Below, piece by piece: positions 2,262 through 44,622 of a stretch of 49,154 nt of DNA (its first letter is position 1; each line of letters opens with the position of its first letter). Both the position numbers and the translations under genes were made by a program. This stretch comes from Pseudomonas phage BUCT566, in the sequence record MW748993.1. One strand, 5' to 3'. A model generated the notes under the pieces. The model saw only the letters and a program-made list of their open reading frames with translations. It ran no database searches and was not told the DNA's origin.

Positions 2262-3539
2262 ATGCCCATGCAGGTCAACATCACCACCCAGGTCAACAGC
2301 GCCAGTATTCGACGTGAGACCTACAACGGGCGCGAACACCTGGTTCTGCCGAGCTACACCCTGCCGGCCGGGGTGGTCATGAACGGTGGTCTCTACACCG
2401 CCGAGCAGATCGACAAGCACTACCCAGGGCTGGAGGGAACGCTCGCGCCGCTCGGCCACCCGATGGTCGATGGGAAGTTCGTTTCGGCGTTCTCCCCTGA
2501 AGGGATCAACGTCGGCCATATCGGCGCCTGGAACCGAAACGTGAAGAAGTCCGGCAACCGGGTCTACATGGAGAAGTGGGTCGACGTCGAGTTCGCCAAG
2601 TCCACGGAAGGCGGTCGTGAACTGTTGCAGCGCGTCGAGGCGCTGGAGAAGGGGGAGGACGTTCCCCCGATCCATACCAGCGTTGCAGCATTCCTCAACC
2701 GCATCGAGCCGAACGAAAGCCAGCGCGCCCAGGGCGCGGAGTGGGTCGCCGACATCCAGAGCATGGACCACGACGCGATCCTGCTGCACGAAGTAGGGGC
2801 GGCCACTCCTGAGCAGGGCGTCGGCCTCATGGTGAACGCGGACCAGGCTGTGCCGCTTCAGCCGAACTCCGGCGCCCTGGTTGGCGAGTCCTACCGGGAG
2901 CGTGAGCAGCGCCTGGACCGAGCCGCAAAGGAGCGATTCGCCTCCGGCCCCGACCAGTACGCATGGGTTGCCGACTTCACCGATTCCCAGGCCGTGATCA
3001 GCCTCAACGGCGGTGTGACCGAGGTGTACGGCTACAAGGTCGAGGCAGGGAAGATCGTCTTCGACGAGTCCGGCCATCCCGTTGTCCGGCAAGAGTCCTG
3101 GGTGGCCATGGTGGCCAACAGCATCAAGAACATTTTCACCCATCGTCAGGCTCGGCCTGATCAACCTGAGAAGGAGGGCGACATGCCCCTGACCCCCGAA
3201 GAAAAGGCCGAAATCGTGAAGGAAATCGGCACCAACACCTCCAGCGCCATCAAGGAACTGGCGGACACCATCATCAAGCCCCTGGCCGACAAGGTCGACG
3301 GCCTGGTCGCCAACCACAAGGCCCTGGCCGACACGCTGACCGCCAACCAGCGCGCCGAGGAAGACAGCATGCGCGAAGCGGTCAAGGCCAAGTTCGGCGA
3401 GGTCATCGCCAACAGCCTGGCCGGCGACGCGCTCAAGGAAATGTTCAAGCAGTGCGGCGAGTCCGCCCCGCTGGGCGCCAATGCCGCCACCGACAAAGGC
3501 GGTCTCACCGCCGATATCAACAACCTGCCGAAGGAGTAA
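2262..3539 (+). CDS. prohead scaffold/protease-like protein (DUF2213-like N-domain, coiled-coil C-terminus)
   Basis: AGAGGA RBS; N-terminal ~300 aa globular, C-terminal ~120 aa heptad-rich Lys/Glu/Ala coiled coil; position between MuF and capsid genes. Confidence 0.5.
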   Translation: MPMQVNITTQVNSASIRRETYNGREHLVLPSYTLPAGVVMNGGLYTAEQIDKHYPGLEGTLAPLGHPMVDGKFVSAFSPEGINVGHIGAWNRNVKKSGNRVYMEKWVDVEFAKSTEGGRELLQRVEALEKGEDVPPIHTSVAAFLNRIEPNESQRAQGAEWVADIQSMDHDAILLHEVGAATPEQGVGLMVNADQAVPLQPNSGALVGESYREREQRLDRAAKERFASGPDQYAWVADFTDSQAVISLNGGVTEVYGYKVEAGKIVFDESGHPVVRQESWVAMVANSIKNIFTHRQARPDQPEKEGDMPLTPEEKAEIVKEIGTNTSSAIKELADTIIKPLADKVDGLVANHKALADTLTANQRAEEDSMREAVKAKFGEVIANSLAGDALKEMFKQCGESAPLGANAATDKGGLTADINNLPKE

Positions 3540-3542
3540 GCC

Positions 3543-3992
3543 ATGTCTCGCTATCGTCGCGTGAACATCGACGGCAAGTCGCTGTTCAAGACCGAAACCC
3601 GCAAGACCGCCGCGGATCTCCTGCCCGGCACGTTCGCCGTGATCAATGGCAGCGACCTGTTCGCCCAGGCAAGCGCAAGCGTTGGCCGACTCTACGTCAT
3701 CGACTGCGCTCACCACGAAGGTCTCAACATCCGCGATGCGGTTCCCGCCGGCCATTCGGCCGTGGGCAACTACGTCGAAGAGGGTCGCGAACTCGCCGTG
3801 CTGTGCCCGGCCGGTACCTACAAGAAGGACACGCCGATCAAGCTCGGAACCAGTGGCCAGGGTGCCATCGCGTCGAGCGATACCGACACGGTCCTCGGTT
3901 ACAGCCAGGACGATGCAGTCATCGCCTCCGGCCAAACCGACTTCATCCGCATCCGCTTCCGTGTCGGCAGTGTCGCCGCCCCGGCGCCCTAA
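3543..3992 (+). CDS. head structural/decoration protein (hypothetical)
   Basis: 149-aa ORF with AAGGAG RBS between scaffold and capsid genes. Confidence 0.35.
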   Translation: MSRYRRVNIDGKSLFKTETRKTAADLLPGTFAVINGSDLFAQASASVGRLYVIDCAHHEGLNIRDAVPAGHSAVGNYVEEGRELAVLCPAGTYKKDTPIKLGTSGQGAIASSDTDTVLGYSQDDAVIASGQTDFIRIRFRVGSVAAPAP

Positions 3993-4007
3993 TAGGAGTA
4001 CGGACAC

Positions 4008-5102
4008 ATGTTCCTCACCCAGCAAGCAATCGCCGCCCATCCCCGCCTGATGGGCCACTTCCAGGAGTTGCAGGCCAACCGCAACATCTGGAACAACCAG
4101 AACGCCGCTATGCTCGCCGAGCACCGCGGCGCCATGACCCCGGGAATGCTGGCCTGCAATGCGCTGGCCGGCCTGGGTCGTGAGTTCTGGGCAGAGATCG
4201 ACGCCCAGATCATCCAGTACCGCAACCAGGAGACCGGCATGGAGATCGTCAACGACCTCCTGCAGGTGCAGACCGTTCTGCCGATCGGCAAGAGTGCCAA
4301 ACTCTACAACGTGGTCGGCGACATCGCCGATGACGTGTCGGTGAGCATCGACGGCCAGGCCCCGTACTCCTTCGATCACACCGAGTACAACTCCGACGGC
4401 GACCCGATCCCGGTATTCACCGCCGGCTACGGTGTCAACTGGCGCCATGCCGCTGGCATGAGCACCGTCGGCATCGACCTGGTCCTGGATTCCCAGGCCG
4501 CGAAGCTCCGCAAGTTCAACAAGCGGATCGTTGCCTACACCCTGGACGGTGCCACCAACATCCAGGTCGAGAACTACCCAGCTCAGGGTCTGCGCAATCA
4601 CCGCAACACCATCAAGGTCAACCTGGGCTCCGGCGCCGGCGGCGCGAACATCGACCTGACCACTGCCACGCCGCAGCAGATCATCGACTTCTTCACCAAA
4701 GGCGCATTCGGCCAAGCCGCGCGCACGAACAAGGTCGACGCCTACGACGTGCTCTGGGTTTCTCCGGAAATCAACGCCAACCTCGCTCAGCCGTACATGA
4801 TCACCATGGGCGGCGGTGCGAATGCGGTAGTGGCCGGCACCGTGCTCGATGCGGTCATGCGCTTCATCCCGGCGCGCGAGGTTCGCCAGACCTTCGCCCT
4901 GTCGGGCAACGAGTTCCTGGGTTATCAGCGACGTCGTGACGTGGTGTCCCCGCTAGTCGGCATGGCTACCGGTGTTATCCCGCTGCCGCGCCCGCTGCCG
5001 CAGGTCAACTACAACTTCCAGATCATGAGCGCCATGGGCATCCAGGTGAAGAAGGACGACGAAGGTCTGTCCGGCGTGATCTACGGCGCCAACCTGGCGT
5101 AA
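4008..5102 (+). CDS. major capsid protein
   Basis: 364-aa ORF with TAGGAGTA RBS directly after scaffold/decoration genes; size and position typical of MCP in portal-MuF-DUF2213 head modules. Confidence 0.6.
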   Translation: MFLTQQAIAAHPRLMGHFQELQANRNIWNNQNAAMLAEHRGAMTPGMLACNALAGLGREFWAEIDAQIIQYRNQETGMEIVNDLLQVQTVLPIGKSAKLYNVVGDIADDVSVSIDGQAPYSFDHTEYNSDGDPIPVFTAGYGVNWRHAAGMSTVGIDLVLDSQAAKLRKFNKRIVAYTLDGATNIQVENYPAQGLRNHRNTIKVNLGSGAGGANIDLTTATPQQIIDFFTKGAFGQAARTNKVDAYDVLWVSPEINANLAQPYMITMGGGANAVVAGTVLDAVMRFIPAREVRQTFALSGNEFLGYQRRRDVVSPLVGMATGVIPLPRPLPQVNYNFQIMSAMGIQVKKDDEGLSGVIYGANLA

Positions 5103-16843: not shown

Positions 16844-18100
16844 ATGTACGCGATGCTAACCGGGGTAACCCTGCTCATTTTTTCAGTGGTTGCAAGGCTT
16901 CTAGCGCGTAGCGCCATACACCCCTCGGTCGCTATGCCAGTCACCTGGGGGTTAGGCCTTCTCGGAGTCAGCCTAGCATCTATGATAGGTTTCTATCCTG
17001 TCGAGTCCGACGCTCTGCTTATTTTCCTCGCAGGTGTCCTTTCGTTTTCACTCTCGTCCGCATTTTTCTCTTTCATCTACAATTCATATACTCCTCCATA
17101 TAGCTACAATGTTCTTTTCGATAGAGACCTGCGCGCTAAATCTCTAGTTTTTTTCTTCTGTGTAGCACACCTGTTTTTTCTCACAGTAATCTACAGAGAT
17201 TTGTCTTCTATTGCTCCAACTCTGCGCGAAGCGGCATATATGGTTCGTGCGCAGTCAGTATCAGGTGAGCCACTCCTCAGTTCTTTGTCTCTAAATTATC
17301 TTCAGCTTGGTCAAACAGTAATACCTCTTGTGGTATTGCTTTATTTGCGCGGGAAATGCGGGGCTATAGGCATGCTGTCTGTTTCTGCTCCATGGATGGC
17401 TGTCATACTTCTGGCAAGCGGCAGATCATCTCTTATGCAGATGCTTGTCGGGTTGTTCTTTATTTATGTTCTGGTAAAGGGTCGTCCATCCATCAAGAGC
17501 ATTTTCGTGATAGGTGCGGCAATGTTCTTGGTAATTGCTGTTGGTGCAGTTGCAACGTCTAAGATCCAGTTTCACGAAGGTGATGGAATCTCTACCTTAT
17601 TCGTTGAGCTTTACCGTCACGTTGCTGGGTATGCTTTGCAGGGTCCTGTTTTATTTGATAGGTACTATCAGGGGCTGATTCAGGTTGAGCCTCATTGGTC
17701 GCCTTTTAACGGTCTTTGCAGTATGGGTTATATATTGGGCTTGTGTGATAAGCCTATTCAGCATCTAGATTTTTACGCTTATGCTCCCGGCGAGCTTGGG
17801 AACGTATACTCAGTATTCTTCTCTATGTACCCTCACTATGGTGTTTTAGGTGTGGTTTTCTTTATGTCTGTTTATGGCATGGTTTGCTCGTATGCATACT
17901 GTAAAGCCAAGAAGGGTAGTCTGTACTTCACAATTCTCTCCTCGTACTTCTTTTCTGCAATCGTGTTTTCCCTGTTTAGTGACCAGATATCCACCTCATG
18001 GTGGTTCTACGTCAAAATGACGATCATTCTGGGAGTCCTGTGCTTCGTGTTTAAGCGTGACAGGATGTTTGTGATACGCCTTCCGCAGAAAGCCAACTGA
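16844..18100 (+). CDS. polytopic membrane protein, O-antigen polymerase (Wzy)-like; probable serotype-conversion moron
   Basis: 418 aa, ~10-12 predicted TM helices, strongly AT-rich codon usage unlike rest of genome, GGAGGA RBS; located directly after tailspike. Confidence 0.5.
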   Translation: MYAMLTGVTLLIFSVVARLLARSAIHPSVAMPVTWGLGLLGVSLASMIGFYPVESDALLIFLAGVLSFSLSSAFFSFIYNSYTPPYSYNVLFDRDLRAKSLVFFFCVAHLFFLTVIYRDLSSIAPTLREAAYMVRAQSVSGEPLLSSLSLNYLQLGQTVIPLVVLLYLRGKCGAIGMLSVSAPWMAVILLASGRSSLMQMLVGLFFIYVLVKGRPSIKSIFVIGAAMFLVIAVGAVATSKIQFHEGDGISTLFVELYRHVAGYALQGPVLFDRYYQGLIQVEPHWSPFNGLCSMGYILGLCDKPIQHLDFYAYAPGELGNVYSVFFSMYPHYGVLGVVFFMSVYGMVCSYAYCKAKKGSLYFTILSSYFFSAIVFSLFSDQISTSWWFYVKMTIILGVLCFVFKRDRMFVIRLPQKAN

Positions 18101-18138: not shown

Positions 18139-18486
18139 GTGGCTAAAAAGGGAATCGACTCGGCGATCATCCATGCGAAGCGGATGGCTAAGCTGAATAG
18201 CGCGTCCAGCAGCTACGGTTGCAGGACTTTGTTTATGCATCTGTCGGCCCTTCGTCCAGATACCCGAACCTCTCACGCCGCAAGGCACGGAAAGCTTTTC
18301 ACTGCTGATCAGGTAAGGGAGTGGTATGCGCGTGATGGCAATTCAGAGGGTTGCAGGTGCTCACTCGTCGAGGTTCTCGTAGACGAGCAGGGTATCCCCC
18401 TGACCCCCATGCTGGTTGAGCGTGCGCGTCAGACTTTCGAAAATATGAAGGCGAAGGGGCGCGGCGACTGGACAAGAGAACTGTGA
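18139..18486 (+). CDS. stand-alone paralog of the Mu F-like C-terminal domain
   Basis: GTG start after GAGGG; residues 31-115 align ~60% identical with C-terminal 85 aa of the 1407-2258 protein (LFMHLSALRPDTRTSHAARHGKLFT..W..DGNS.GCRCS.VEVLVD..G.P....VERAR....MKAKGRG.W). Confidence 0.5.
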   Translation: MAKKGIDSAIIHAKRMAKLNSASSSYGCRTLFMHLSALRPDTRTSHAARHGKLFTADQVREWYARDGNSEGCRCSLVEVLVDEQGIPLTPMLVERARQTFENMKAKGRGDWTREL

Positions 18487-18502
18487 CCTTGAGTGATCTC
18501 AG

Positions 18503-18531
18503 CAGCCCGGCCAAGAGCCGGGCTTTTTATT
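18503..18531 (+). terminator. rho-independent terminator
   Basis: GCCCGG-ccaaga-GCCGGGC followed by TTTTTATTT. Confidence 0.6.
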
Positions 18532-18543
18532 TCAGGAGAGCGT

Positions 18544-19173
18544 ATGCCTATCACTGAGCAGCAGTTGCTGCATGTCCTCCCGAACGCCGGCCCTCGAGCC
18601 GGCGTTTTTGTTGGTGCGCTGAATCGTGGGATGACGCGGTTCGGCATTACCTCGCTGGTGCGCGCGGCGGCATTCCTCGCCCATGTCGGCCACGAAAGCG
18701 GCCAGTTGACCCGCTTGGTGGAGAACCTCAACTACAGTGCGCGCGGCCTGGCCGCGACCTGGCCGAGCCGGTATCGCGCCGCCGACGGCCAGCCGAACGC
18801 TCTGGCGCAGCGCCTGGCGCGCAACCCCCGAGCCATCGCCAACAACGCCTACGCCTCGCGCAACGGCAATGGCGACGAGGCGTCGGGCGACGGCTGGCGG
18901 TTCCGCGGGCGTGGCCTGCTACAGATCACCGGCCGGTCGAACTACCGCGCCGCCGGCGCCGGGCTGGGCCAGCCGCTGGAGGCTGAGCCCGAGCTTCTCG
19001 AGCAACCGGAGTGGGCGGCGCTGTCCGCCGCCTGGTGGTGGTCGACGCACGGCCTGAACGACCTGGCCGACCGCGGCGAGTTCGCCGCCATCACTCGGCG
19101 CATCAACGGCGGCACGAACGGCCAGGCGGAGCGCTTGGCGCTGTGGGAGCGGGCCAAGGGGGTGCTGTCGTGA
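18544..19173 (+). CDS. endolysin, glycoside hydrolase family 19 (chitinase-like lysozyme)
   Basis: AGGAGAG RBS + ATG at 18544; AHVGHESG..L..ENLNYS and GRGLLQITG..NY motifs typical of GH19 endolysins. Confidence 0.75.
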   Translation: MPITEQQLLHVLPNAGPRAGVFVGALNRGMTRFGITSLVRAAAFLAHVGHESGQLTRLVENLNYSARGLAATWPSRYRAADGQPNALAQRLARNPRAIANNAYASRNGNGDEASGDGWRFRGRGLLQITGRSNYRAAGAGLGQPLEAEPELLEQPEWAALSAAWWWSTHGLNDLADRGEFAAITRRINGGTNGQAERLALWERAKGVLS

Positions 19174-19562
19174 TCTCGGCCCGCGCGATTTCGATAGCGC
19201 TGGCCTGCCTGCTTCTGGTCGGCCTCGGCGCCGCCGGCGGTGTCTGGCTCGGCGCGCGACACTACCGGCCGCAGTTGGATGCCGCGAGCGCGGATCTGGC
19301 TGCCTGCCGTGCCTCCCGGGGAGAGTTGGAGTCCGCAGTGGCGGAGCAGGTCCGGCAGGTTGCCGCGCTGCGACTGGCTGGTGAGCAGCGCGCCCGGGAT
19401 GCAGCCAAGGCGCTGGAGCAGGGACGACAGCAGGCCGCCGAGCGGTATGCAGCAGCCCATCGCCTACTGAGCCAGCGAACCGTCGGCGGGCAGTGCGCGG
19501 CCGCCGAGGCGGTCATTGATCAGGAGTTGGGGCTTTCGGCCATGCACTCCAGTGCGAACTGA
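19170..19562 (+). CDS. i-spanin (Rz-like)
   Basis: GTG start overlapping endolysin stop (GTGA), AAGGGGG RBS; N-terminal TM segment then Ala/Gln/Arg-rich coiled coil. Confidence 0.55.
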   Translation: MISARAISIALACLLLVGLGAAGGVWLGARHYRPQLDAASADLAACRASRGELESAVAEQVRQVAALRLAGEQRARDAAKALEQGRQQAAERYAAAHRLLSQRTVGGQCAAAEAVIDQELGLSAMHSSAN

Positions 19563-19738
19563 ACCGTGTAAGGCGCGGCCCGGTAGAGCTGGTGCGACTC
19601 GTCGCGCAGGTAGTTGCGGAAGCCTGGCCATGAAAGGCCGAGTAGTTCCGCTGCTTGACGCTGGCTGACACCTGCTTTGTCGACCAGCCCGCGCAGGTAG
19701 CGCGGATCTGGATTGTGGTTGGAGGCGTCAGGCTTCAT
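19520..19738 (-). CDS. aca1: Aca1-like HTH regulator (anti-CRISPR-associated)
   Basis: 72 aa: MKPDASNHNPDPRYLRGLVDKAGVSQRQAAELLGLS...APYTVQFALECMA; matches my recollection of Aca1 of P. aeruginosa Mu-like phages; start overlaps upstream gene stop. Confidence 0.55.
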   Translation of the reverse strand: MKPDASNHNPDPRYLRGLVDKAGVSQRQAAELLGLSWPGFRNYLRDESHQLYRAAPYTVQFALECMAESPNS

Positions 19739-20021
19739 CTTCGACCGCTTCGAGCAGGCGCTTGATTTCTGAATCTTCTGCGGTGCGAGCTTCGTCGTCC
19801 AGCCAGTCCGCATAGCCTTTGATGCTGTCTGCGTCGTCGGCATCCATCGCGTACTGAGTAGTGCCCGACTGGATCAGAACGCTGTTGTCGTCGAACGTGT
19901 ACTTGGTATAGCCCTCGCCATCCCAGACCTGATCTTTTGCGATAGCGATGGCTTCGGCGGCTTCGCACGCTGCGACAGTATCTTTGTGCTGCTGAGCGAT
20001 CATTTGTGCGGTCTTAGTCAT
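19728..20021 (-). CDS. small strongly acidic protein; candidate anti-CRISPR (AcrIF2-like DNA mimic)
   Basis: 97 aa (91 from second Met), ~25% Asp/Glu, AAGGAGAG RBS; immediately upstream of and co-oriented with Aca1-like gene. Confidence 0.45.
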   Translation of the reverse strand: MTKTAQMIAQQHKDTVAACEAAEAIAIAKDQVWDGEGYTKYTFDDNSVLIQSGTTQYAMDADDADSIKGYADWLDDEARTAEDSEIKRLLEAVEDEA

Positions 20022-20119
20022 GGTGTCTCTCCTTGGGTTCGCCTCGCCGTTGTGGCTGGCATGGGTGTAGATTAATGGGTAACAACGTACACCACAACAA
20101 CCGTTCGTCGGAGTTGACC

Positions 20120-20383
20120 ATGCGTTGGATGATTTTGATTTTCGCGGTCGCGCTGGCGGGATGCGCCGGCCGGCAGGAAGCCGAGCCGCGCACGGTGCGC
20201 GTAGAAGTGCCGGTGGCGGTGCCGTGCCGGGTGCCGGCGGTGGAGGTGCCGGCATGGGCAACCGCTGGGCTGAAGAAGAGCGACGATATCCAGACCAAGG
20301 TCCGTGCGTTGCTCGCCGAACGCTTGCAGCGGATCGGTTACGAGGCGCAGCTCCTGGCTGCGAACCAGGCCTGCCAGGATTAG
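20120..20383 (+). CDS. o-spanin-like outer-membrane lipoprotein (Rz1-like)
   Basis: GGAG RBS; lipoprotein signal MRWMILIFAVALAGC (LAGC lipobox), Pro-rich VEVPVAVPCRVPAVEVPAW, C-terminal Cys. Confidence 0.45.
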   Translation: MRWMILIFAVALAGCAGRQEAEPRTVRVEVPVAVPCRVPAVEVPAWATAGLKKSDDIQTKVRALLAERLQRIGYEAQLLAANQACQD

Positions 20384-20418
20384 GAGTAGACTACGGCCTT
20401 TTCCTACGGAGCTCGGTG

Positions 20419-20682
20419 ATGCTGGTGATTCGATTCAAGGGCTGGTCGGTGAAACTCGACCACCAGGTGGGCAGCGCTGGGAAACATGGCATCTGGTCGT
20501 TCCACGGCTCGGAGAGCAGCTACGTACCGGACATGGAGACGATTCTCCGGCATGCTGCTATTCGGCCTGCGGAGCCGAAAGAAGGCGGGGAGGTCGAGGT
20601 ATTCATCTGTGATTCGCGTATGCCGCAGGACGAATGGCGGGCGGTAGGGACCGGCGTCGCGGCTTATGAGTCGGACCGCTGA
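20419..20682 (+). CDS. hypothetical protein (87 aa) adjacent to attP
   Basis: ATG with GGAG RBS; ORF-track 20125 start is a spurious extension. Confidence 0.35.
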   Translation: MLVIRFKGWSVKLDHQVGSAGKHGIWSFHGSESSYVPDMETILRHAAIRPAEPKEGGEVEVFICDSRMPQDEWRAVGTGVAAYESDR

Positions 20683-20700
20683 ATGCTGGCCGTGACGGAA

Positions 20701-20742
20701 ACGTGAAGCACGGAAATGGAAAACGTGAAAAGGAATTTCACG
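20701..20742. promoter_or_regulatory. attP left arm: integrase arm-type repeats ACGTGAA(A)
   Basis: ACGTGAAG (20701-08), ACGTGAAA (20723-30), inverted TTTCACG (20736-42). Confidence 0.4.
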
Positions 20743-20810
20743 ATTGGCACAGTTTAAGTGATTGCGGTCGGCGTAAACTGTTGTAATATAAGAGCTTCTG
20801 ATGTGCGAGA

Positions 20811-20868
20811 CAGGATTTAGGTTCCAGCGCCGCAAGGCGTGAGAGTTCGAGTCTCTCCGTCCGCACCA
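20811..20868 (+). other. attP core: 3' portion (variable arm, T arm, acceptor 3' strand, CCA) of a type-II tRNA gene
   Basis: GAGAG-TTCGAGT-CTCTC T-arm then CGTCCGC-A-CCA; upstream GCGCC-GCAA-GGCGT variable-arm hairpin; no complementary 5' acceptor strand within 100 bp; ends 10 bp from integrase stop. Confidence 0.55.
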
Positions 20869-20877
20869 CCTTCTAAA

Positions 20878-21987
20878 TCAAGTGTTTACGAGCTTCAGCG
20901 GCCCTCCATGTAGATGCGCTGGATTATCAGCGTGAACAGAACGTGAAATGCGGCTTTCACGGACTTGATCAAGAACCCCAACAGCATCCCTTACCCTGGC
21001 CGGAGCAAGATGGGCATATCGTTCAGTCATCGCGACTGTCGAGTGTCCGAGCAGATCCCGTACATCCGCCAGCGGAACGCCGGCGCTGACCAGCCATGCC
21101 GCGCAGGTGTGGCGCAGGTCGTGAATCGTAAAGTCCGCAATCTTCGCTGCCTGGCAGGCCTGCTTGAAGCCGGCCGAAAGCGATATCACTCGATCACCGT
21201 TAGCGCGCGCAAAGACCCAGGGGCATTCCGGGCTGGTCTCGGACCTGAATGCCATTCGTCGCTTTAGTGCTGCCATCGCCCCTTCGTTGATCGGGATGCT
21301 CCGGCGCTTGCCTGCCTTCGTGTGGGATGCCTCCAAGTAGATCAGTCGATTGGCGAAATCCACTCTGCGCCACTCCAGGCCAAGCATTTCCTCCCGCCGG
21401 CATCCGGTGTTCACCGCTAGGCGGATGAAGTCCTCGAGCATCGGGCCAAACTTCTGGACGCGCGCGGCGCGGCACAGGGACTCGACCTCCGCCCTGGTCA
21501 GCCAACGATCACGTCCCTCGGCCTCGCGCATCTTCCGCCCCTTCACCGGGTTAGGAAGGGCCCACTCCAGTTCTGTGTTGCAGTGGTTGATGGCCGCGGA
21601 CAGTGCGGCGAGTTCTCGGTTGATGGTTGCCGGGGATGCGCCGGCATCCAACCGATGCGCTCCATATCCCCGGATGTCCTGGCCCCCTAGATCGTTGACC
21701 ACGCGTCCGGCAAAATAATCGCGCAGCGGCTTTATGCGGTGCACGGTCGTTTCGTAGCTGCGCTGATGCTGGCGAGCGTGCTGCAGGTACGGAATGATCA
21801 CCTCCTCAAAGGTCCTGGGCGGATTCACGCCCATTTCCTTTTCCTTCCACGCTTTCGCGCGCTCCTGTTGCTCTAGTGCTTTCGCCGCCGAGTAGTCGGC
21901 AGTTCCAGAAGAGCGTCTAACAAGCTTTCCTGTTGCTGATTTGAAAGAGATCCACCAGTAGGCGGAGTCGTTTCTCTTGTACGGCAT
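20878..21987 (-). CDS. int: tyrosine integrase
   Basis: 369 aa; R..HDLRHT..Y C-terminal catalytic motifs; adjacent to tRNA fragment. Confidence 0.85.
   Translation of the reverse strand: MPYKRNDSAYWWISFKSATGKLVRRSSGTADYSAAKALEQQERAKAWKEKEMGVNPPRTFEEVIIPYLQHARQHQRSYETTVHRIKPLRDYFAGRVVNDLGGQDIRGYGAHRLDAGASPATINRELAALSAAINHCNTELEWALPNPVKGRKMREAEGRDRWLTRAEVESLCRAARVQKFGPMLEDFIRLAVNTGCRREEMLGLEWRRVDFANRLIYLEASHTKAGKRRSIPINEGAMAALKRRMAFRSETSPECPWVFARANGDRVISLSAGFKQACQAAKIADFTIHDLRHTCAAWLVSAGVPLADVRDLLGHSTVAMTERYAHLAPARVRDAVGVLDQVRESRISRSVHADNPAHLHGGPLKLVNT
20931..20961. promoter_or_regulatory. attP right arm: arm-type repeats inside int 3' end
   Basis: CGTGAACA (20931-38), ACGTGAAA (20941-48), inverted TTTCACG (20955-61). 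Confidence 0.35.
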
Positions 21988-44546: not shown

Positions 44547-44622
44547 CGCAGGGTGGAGAAGTGGTCATCTCGCCGGGCCCATAACCCGGAGAACGCTGGT
44601 TCGAATCCAGCCCTTGCTACCA
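44547..44622 (+). tRNA. tRNA, anticodon CAU, initiator (fMet)-like
   Basis: 76-nt cloverleaf: 7-bp acceptor with 1:72 C.U mismatch, GAGA/TCTC D-stem with GG in loop, CCGGG/CCCGG anticodon stem with 3 G-C pairs, loop CCCAUAA, TTCGAAT T-loop, discriminator A + CCA; closely parallels E. coli tRNA-fMet. Confidence 0.65.

Follow-up and report, generated by a model that had tools for sequence, protein, structure and literature searches.

The stretch of DNA analysed here, in the following called the window, comprises 49,154 nucleotides of Pseudomonas phage BUCT566 (MW748993.1), by DNA similarity a D3/JBD44/PMG1-like temperate siphophage. On its plus strand it encodes an endolysin (18547-19173), an Rz-like i-spanin (19170-19562) and an o-spanin lipoprotein (20120-20383), and between the latter two genes lie two genes on the minus strand, acrIF2 (19728-20021) and aca1 (19520-19738). 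An earlier reading of the letters without database searches (the sequence-only reading) had proposed that an anti-CRISPR operon, made up of an acidic protein resembling a DNA mimic and of Aca1, is inserted at this place. We consider it very probable that the two genes form a functional acrIF2-aca1 operon on a cassette of about 580 base pairs which, in antisense orientation, separates the i-spanin gene of a D3/JBD44-like temperate P. aeruginosa siphophage from its o-spanin gene; the activity would follow from the identity to characterised proteins.

The two genes of the cassette

The acrIF2 gene starts with an ATG at 20021 and ends with a stop codon at 19728-19730 (coding region 19731-20021), and 23 of the 97 residues of its product are Asp or Glu (23.7%). 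A Shine-Dalgarno sequence, AAGGAGAG, is located upstream at 20027-20034, with 7 nucleotides from its GGAG core to the ATG; the acidic gene with a strong Shine-Dalgarno sequence that had been described from the letters is thus present. A comparison with the PDB returned the AcrF2 structures (Anti-CRISPR protein 30) 5YHR, 6B47, 5UZ9 and 8DFS with E values from 2e-55 (5YHR) to 1.5e-51, and in the Pfam family PF25704 AcrF2 the protein scored 200.1 bits (cut-off 27, E 5.6e-60). With AcrF2 of the Mu-like phage MP29 the identity is 100% at the protein level and 283 of 283 nucleotides at the DNA level, and with the crystallised D3112 protein (PDB 5YHR, 5UZ9 and 6B47) it is about 94%. NCBIfam has no models for the Acr and Aca proteins considered here.

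On these matches the acidic protein is AcrIF2 itself and not merely AcrIF2-like, which makes the AcrIF2-type guess of the sequence-only reading an understatement. Another DNA mimic, for instance an Ocr-like anti-restriction protein, was considered as well and is ruled out by the 100% identity to AcrIF2. All eight acidic residues of the interface with Cas8f and Cas7f are kept (D30, E36, D76, E77, E82, E85, E91 and E94), the set of interface residues which was mutated by Leon et al. (PMC7913775). AcrIF2 inhibits both type I-F and type I-C (PMC7913775), and given its identity to the protein assayed in that study, the window copy would inhibit type I-F (and I-C) interference.

The aca1 gene is located directly downstream on the same strand and overlaps acrIF2 by 11 nucleotides (ATG at 19738, stop codon at 19520-19522, coding region 19523-19738). 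Its 72 amino acid helix-turn-helix product had been assigned to the Aca1 family from a peptide, which is found exactly as quoted, and the homology check agrees with this assignment: the PDB entries 7C0G and 7FA3 match with E values of about 1e-26 (7.5e-27 and 9.1e-27, respectively), residues 2-71 being aligned to residues 8-77. Pfam gave a weak HTH_31 match. MP29 Aca1 shares its first 18 residues without any difference, and the exact protein of the window is present on 158 contigs. By this homology the protein is a member of the Aca1 family. For both genes the database matches (E 2e-55 for acr and 7.5e-27 for aca) exclude chance open reading frames. The BUCT566 record itself names the 97 amino acid product "Anti-CRISPR protein", the 72 amino acid product "Transcriptional regulator" and the 87 amino acid o-spanin "Lipoprotein".

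The insertion between the spanin genes

The endolysin gene is the first gene of the lysis cassette which is interrupted by the acr cassette. It encodes an enzyme of the glycoside hydrolase family 19 type (PHROG 181 endolysin, 1.5e-88; Pfam Glyco_hydro_19, 1.3e-6); homology to gp42 of phage JBD44 starts at 18544, and the first ATG within this homology, at 18547, was taken as start codon. The next gene has a GTG start that overlaps the endolysin stop and encodes 130 amino acids (identical to QUE30210.1 and YP_010773490.1 of BUCT566), with a single N-terminal hydrophobic segment (mean Kyte-Doolittle value 2.32 over residues 1-19) and a long helical periplasmic part. The o-spanin gene encodes 87 amino acids with the lipobox LAGC at residues 12-15 and a Pro-rich mature part, and its product matches phrog_3580 (3.7e-47). 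Standard two-component spanins consist of an i-spanin with a transmembrane segment, encoded next to the endolysin, and an o-spanin with a lipobox.

The spanin role of the gene at 19170-19562 is suggested by this topology and by its position after the endolysin gene. It is improbable that the two neighbours of the cassette are something other than a spanin pair, namely two unrelated late genes. This alternative could draw on the PHROGs labels, which for both families read "unknown function", on the weak match of the o-spanin to the "Rz-like spanin" profile phrog_456 (3.6e-4), and on Pfam, where neither of the two proteins gave a match above threshold. It does not account for the overlap with the endolysin stop, the one N-terminal transmembrane segment and the long helical periplasmic part of the first protein, for the lipobox and the Pro-rich part of the second, and for the ATGA overlap of both genes in phages without the insert, all of which fit the standard layout. 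As a separate observation, terminator-like hairpins with T-runs are present on the plus strand at 18504-18524, shortly before the endolysin start, and at 18582-18607, just inside the gene. These two hairpins around the endolysin start suggest that the lysis genes may depend on antitermination or on a promoter of their own.

The endolysin, Rz-like and lipoprotein genes are also present in JBD44, where the stop codon of Rz and the following start codon overlap as ATGA and gp43 ends with ...ELGL at the junction. Since both genes abut in JBD44 without an insert, the acr-aca1 pair splits the spanin genes, as had been proposed with coordinates that we can confirm; the convergent overlap of aca1 with the 3´ end of the i-spanin gene is likewise present and measures 43 base pairs (19520-19562). 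Homology to JBD44 stops at 19534 and restarts at 20148, so that 19535-20147 is inserted DNA in comparison with the empty site. The cassette itself covers approximately 19535-20114, because it is delimited by the homology to MP29 (19539-20074) and to the podophage Ab31 (19538-19738 and 20015-20114). From the remaining 33 base pairs the o-spanin gene receives a new 5´ end; from 20148 on it is 89% identical to JBD44 gp44 at the DNA level.

The insertion changes the ends of the genes at both of its borders. The last eight codons of Rz, SAMHSSAN (19536-19559), and its stop codon come from cassette DNA, antisense to aca1. The 122-position profile phrog_3774 matches residues 1-122 of the i-spanin, and the 122 and 130 amino acid forms of Rz belong to one 90% cluster. 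In the opposite direction, the last four residues of Aca1, SPNS, and its stop codon (19520-19534) are read from the antisense strand of the Rz 3´ end, while Aca1 ends with ...ECLASDPPSA in MP29 and with ...ECLASD in Ab31. At the other border, the o-spanin Shine-Dalgarno sequence GGAG (20110-20113) is located at the cassette edge; this GGAG is found in Ab31 too, where another gene follows it. By these coordinates the insertion gives the o-spanin gene a new predicted start codon and Shine-Dalgarno sequence.

A terminator scan and RNA folding of 19400-19540 on the minus strand (141 nucleotides) revealed no terminator after aca1 (z = -0.54, no better than shuffled sequences). Since no terminator was detected, the acr transcripts should run antisense into Rz. 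A functional meaning of the antisense position in lysis cassettes, as opposed to a tolerated hotspot for morons, is unlikely.

Promoter, operator and Aca1 types

The acr promoter and the 5´ untranslated region (UTR) are located on the minus strand at 20022-20114. This region contains the conserved 5´ UTR block CATGCCAGCCACAACGGCGAGGCG and an upstream conserved block which runs to 20114. By alignment to MP29 the hexamer TAATCT (20069-20074) was assigned as putative -10 element, and the 17-nucleotide spacing from it (TGTACGTTGTTACCCAT, 20075-20091) sets TTGTGG (20092-20097) as putative -35 element. From the ATG up to the TAATCT hexamer the identity to the MP29 acr promoter is 91-100%. The following 40 nucleotides (20075-20114), with the spacer and the -35 element, are only 40% identical to MP29 and thus unrelated to it, but are 100% identical to Ab31 and to phage VB_EV13 (EV13). 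In MP29 the inverted repeat IR2 (GGCACAATGTGCC) abuts the equivalent of the TAATCT hexamer and IR1 is located further upstream; the conserved block of the window, in the following called type B, sits where MP29 has IR2. It includes TTGTGGTGTACGTTGTTACCCA, while the IR2 21-mer of JBD30 reads ATTAGGCACAATGTGCCTAAT.

From this arrangement the following course of events can be proposed. Early after entry of the DNA, the cassette promoter (about 20069-20097, minus strand) would drive expression of AcrIF2, which as an acidic DNA mimic would bind the recognition site for the protospacer adjacent motif, formed by Cas8f and Cas7f, of the type I-F Csy complex and would also block the type I-C Cascade. 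The complexes guided by CRISPR RNA would thereby be kept off the phage DNA. Aca1 would be translated from the AcrIF2 mRNA as well, and would then repress the promoter and keep expression in the lysogen low.

Several observations weigh against this proposal. The region 18300-21000 gave no promoter in a generic sigma-70 scan, and each of the two assigned hexamers, which depend on the MP29 alignment, agrees with the consensus at only 3 of 6 positions. The acr promoter region lacks the canonical Aca1 operator GGCAC-N3-GTGCC: no match was found in 19500-20200 with up to 2 mismatches, GGCAC-N4-GTGCC is likewise not found near the promoter, and in the whole window GGCAC-N3-GTGCC has 21 matches, fewer than the 39.7 expected by chance. 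A search for dyad symmetry in 20015-20125 yielded inverted repeats of only 6-7 nucleotides, with no convincing operator and no clean dyad in the type B spacer, which leaves repression by Aca1 at this promoter a conjecture. In the alignment to 7C0G, R44, V45 and Y48, which contact DNA in JBD30 Aca1, are replaced by P, G and N in the window Aca1; of these, R44 and V45 are not conserved among Aca1 homologues (PMC8633003). Two candidates for a type-specific operator were rejected: GGTGTA/TACACC, which flanks the -10 element, because its right arm is not conserved in Ab31, and GTTGTGG/CCACAAC, because it involves the 5´ UTR block common to all Aca1 types.

Could the operon encode AcrIF2 while its type B Aca1 leaves this promoter unrepressed and acts on another target or by another mechanism, with acr unregulated or differently regulated? 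The missing canonical repeats, the three replacements in the recognition helix and the spacer lacking a clear dyad all speak for this possibility, which we still regard as unlikely. The residues R47 and R59, strictly conserved in Aca1 proteins (PMC8633003), are kept in the window Aca1. The acr promoter is repressed by Aca1 via inverted repeats (PMC8633003), and the type B block lies at the position of such a repeat, the MP29 IR2. Moreover, all Aca families tested so far are autorepressors (PMC9410906). Finally, the type B helix and promoter block are inherited together in every locus examined, as predicted for a cognate pair of repressor and operator.

This co-inheritance emerged from a comparison of the window (20075-20114 and 19539-19684) with the loci L006-L018 and L033-L042. 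Every Mu-like locus examined combines the type A helix SDRVMRYYL with two GGCAC-N3-GTGCC repeats, and every D3-like or Ab31-like locus combines the type B helix SWPGFRNYL with the block TTGTGGTGTAC(G/A)(T/A)TGTTACCCA; for type B this applies to 13 loci from IMG/VR, 7 genome loci, EV13 and Ab31. A third Aca1 helix, TARALRNYV, is paired with two GGAAC-N3-GTTCC repeats. Even in loci with identical AcrIF2 cargo the repressor type corresponds to the promoter type (10 of 10). Thus, at least three types of Aca1 recognition helix can be distinguished on sequence grounds, each with its own promoter block, and the type follows the phage backbone and not the acr cargo.

The window Aca1 is probably a homologue with a different operator specificity and does not form a repressor-operator pair of the JBD30 type with its promoter, because GGCAC-N3-GTGCC was not found near the latter while both repeats are present in MP29 and in further Mu-like loci that carry this cargo. 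The co-inheritance of helix type and promoter block suggests that this Aca1 represses its own acr promoter. The cassette is a mosaic: the cargo and the first 54 nucleotides of aca1 are 98-100% identical to MP29 and the 5´ UTR is 91.5% identical, whereas the rest of aca1 (71-76%) and the operator block come from another lineage. The simplest reading of this pattern is that repressor and operator remain as a pair on their phage backbone and that the cargo is exchanged by recombination between conserved arms.

Spread of the arrangement and comparison with known systems

The exact 97 amino acid AcrIF2 was looked up in public assemblies. In Mu-like prophages it was found in three places, with ten similar ones, between Mu-F/tail-S-like genes and the protease gene. 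In addition, at least seven distinct places in P. aeruginosa prophages show the layout of the window. The gene order in these seven is endolysin, Rz (130 amino acids), aca1 (72 amino acids), acrIF2, o-spanin (87 amino acids) and a gene for 87 amino acids, followed by host DNA, with at least three kinds of host genes beside the prophage end and at least three different endolysins. The open reading frame for this last protein is located in the window at 20419-20682 on the plus strand, between the o-spanin gene and the integrase gene (20878-21987, minus strand); in the lysogen loci L035-L042 it is conserved as the final gene of the prophage, with host DNA following, and attP is presumably located just beyond it.

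A scan of IMG/VR with the window Aca1 gave 26 loci, for which reference proteins were mapped onto the loci and the open reading frames upstream of aca1 were read. The cargo identified at the Rz/o-spanin site comprises a 100 amino acid protein together with AcrIC4 (8DFO, E 3.5e-35), AcrIE3 (8ZEY, 3.8e-40), AcrIF7 (6M3N, 3.7e-41), AcrIF6 (6VQX, 3e-60) and AcrIE4 (Pfam PF25703). In one further locus AcrIF2 and AcrIE4 are encoded beside an o-spanin homologue, and no Rz homologue was detected there. The version with the 100 amino acid protein and AcrIC4 is carried by phage VB_EV13, which was the best phage match at the finding (coverage 77%) and has an Aca1 identical to that of the window. The 100 amino acid protein (3803-4105 in VB_EV13, L001; 658-957 in L006) is encoded first in the operon, before AcrIC4, and belongs to a 24-member cluster; it has no match in PDB, Pfam or NCBIfam and no name in any source. 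According to a preprint AcrIC3 and AcrIC4 co-occur, which makes this protein a probable candidate for AcrIC3.

Not all cargo at the site is acr cargo. Another antisense insert occupies this Rz/o-spanin site in the phages LC3I3 and P27. In vB_Pae_LC3I3 (L002) the insert at 3460-4020, which corresponds to the window site 19535-20147, encodes an 80 amino acid homologue of the HicA toxin (PF07927, 29.2 bits against a cut-off of 27), downstream of a 105 amino acid protein that may be its antitoxin. In most isolated relatives (among them JBD44, D3, PMG1, PAJU2 and phi297) the site is empty, as judged from the 700-830 base pair span of the match. Because a HicA-like module is also found there, the Rz/o-spanin site is, on the loci compared, a recurrent hotspot for cargo in general and not for acr genes only, with acr-aca1 as the commonest occupant in prophages.

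The variety of cargo bears on a further alternative, namely that the cassette is an inert passenger or a decaying remnant which is not expressed from its antisense position in the late operon. Its orientation convergent to the lysis genes and the weak match of the promoter hexamers to the consensus could be taken in this sense. However, both open reading frames are intact, the cargo agrees with a functional gene at every nucleotide, and the promoter and 5´ UTR are conserved across many independent loci. Since the cargo at the site turns over among active acr families, the site appears to be under selection. Furthermore, one P. aeruginosa strain has a self-targeting type I-C spacer while its aca1 locus holds acrIF2 alone, and AcrIF2 expressed from a phage inhibited type I-C completely (PMC7913775). 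An inert cassette is therefore very improbable, and we retain the reading as a functional acrIF2-aca1 operon.

The type B module is also found outside the D3/JBD44-like phages. A survey of AcrIF7 lists the podophage Ab31 as a carrier (PMC10155984), and in Ab31-like podophages (L005, 2492-2894; L014, L016 and L017) the cargo of the type B module is AcrIF7, AcrIE3 or AcrIF3; in these podophages, too, the module lies antisense among the lysis genes, between the endolysin gene and the gene for the Rz-like spanin gp68. It might be possible, though rather unlikely when taken as a whole, that type B aca1 and its promoter form a distinct specificity type whose operator is not recognised by the type A Aca1 of Mu-like phages, and which resides in the lysis cassettes of at least two unrelated lineages of P. 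aeruginosa phages (at Rz/Rz1 in D3/JBD44-like and between endolysin and spanin genes in Ab31-like phages). It would serve there as a fixed landing pad, with cargo swapped via the 5´ UTR and the first 54 nucleotides of aca1. Early acr transcription and its shut-off by Aca1 could then be coupled to the timing of the lysis genes, because without a terminator the operon is read on in antisense direction into Rz and the endolysin gene.

As a feature the operon is already known, and acr-aca1 operons outside Mu-like phages and within the D3/JBD44-like group are established. Leon et al. used aca1 as search anchor and associated AcrIC3 and AcrIC4 with D3/JBD44-like siphophages (preprint). The novelty of the location implied in the sequence-only reading did not hold, given the same layout in several P. 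aeruginosa genomes, the other acr genes at this site in VB_EV13 and in IMG/VR prophages, and the anti-CRISPR label in the record. A search of the literature on anti-CRISPR and aca1 together with spanin or Rz1 yielded no description of a position between the spanin genes, and the only paper found to mention BUCT566 does so once, in passing, without a description of the locus; that the cassette lies exactly between the spanin genes seems to have gone unnoticed in print. Mildly new are the type B helix without the canonical operator, the eight additional residues of Rz and the location of the Ab31 module in a lysis cassette as well.

With a well-known anti-CRISPR protein, a label in the record and a widespread layout, the identification alone carries little weight. 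The locus is of value as a clean example of acr cargo moving between unrelated backbones while repressor and operator stay with the backbone. It also indicates that Aca1 is not one regulatory specificity, which matters for tools based on Aca1 and its operator and for predicting cross-repression of co-resident prophages. In addition, the Rz/Rz1 junction of D3/JBD44-like phages offers itself as a place to mine for new anti-defence genes.

Two other features of the phage may be recorded here. A polytopic membrane protein of 418 amino acids is encoded just upstream of the lysis genes (16844-18100, plus strand). Its homologous prophage loci have a weak match to Wzy_C (O-antigen polymerase) in Pfam, and in D3 and PMG1 the region encodes an O-antigen beta-polymerase. 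The membrane protein is probably the product of a moron for serotype conversion. A single phage-encoded tRNA-Met (CAT) gene is located at 44547-44622 on the plus strand.

Compared with AcrIF2 of D3112 (gp30) and MP29 (ORF30), the window copy is alike in length, acidity, interface residues and the presence of aca1 downstream. In the Mu-like phages, however, the gene is co-oriented between the G-like and protease genes, whereas here it lies antisense between the spanin genes of a D3/JBD44-like siphophage, and D3112 carries AcrIE4 besides AcrIF2 whereas AcrIF2 is the sole acr gene in the window. JBD30 Aca1 (gp36; PDB 7C0G, 7FA3 and 7VJM) and the window Aca1 are homologous over the full length, similar in size, share the helix-turn-helix and the equivalents of R47 and R59, and are both encoded by the last gene of an acr operon, overlapping the acr gene. 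They differ in the recognition helix (SDRVMRYYL in JBD30, SWPGFRNYL in the window) and in the C-terminal tail, for which the window Aca1 has the four residues from antisense Rz DNA in place of the JBD30-type tail. The promoters differ as well, with two GGCAC-N3-GTGCC repeats in JBD30 and a different conserved block in their place in the window.

Among the closest counterparts are the other acr-aca1 loci of D3/JBD44-like phages (AcrIC4 in EV13 and the prophages with AcrIF6, AcrIF7, AcrIE3 or AcrIE4), which have the same site, the same orientation, the 130 amino acid Rz and a type B aca1 and promoter identical or near-identical to those of the window, and in which only the acr cargo differs. The acrIF7-aca1 module of Ab31 has the same type B aca1, a promoter block which is 100% identical over 20075-20114, and likewise an antisense position inside the lysis cassette. 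It differs from the window in its unrelated backbone, in its cargo, in the Aca1 end ...ECLASD and in the junction used, which there lies between endolysin and gp68/Rz. In phage lambda, bor next to Rz/Rz1 is an antisense moron in a lambdoid late region. Both bor and the cassette described here are small, self-promoted accessory modules which run opposite to the late operon and adjoin the spanin genes, but bor is located downstream of these genes and is not an anti-defence gene, whereas the cassette of the window lies between them and encodes an anti-CRISPR protein.

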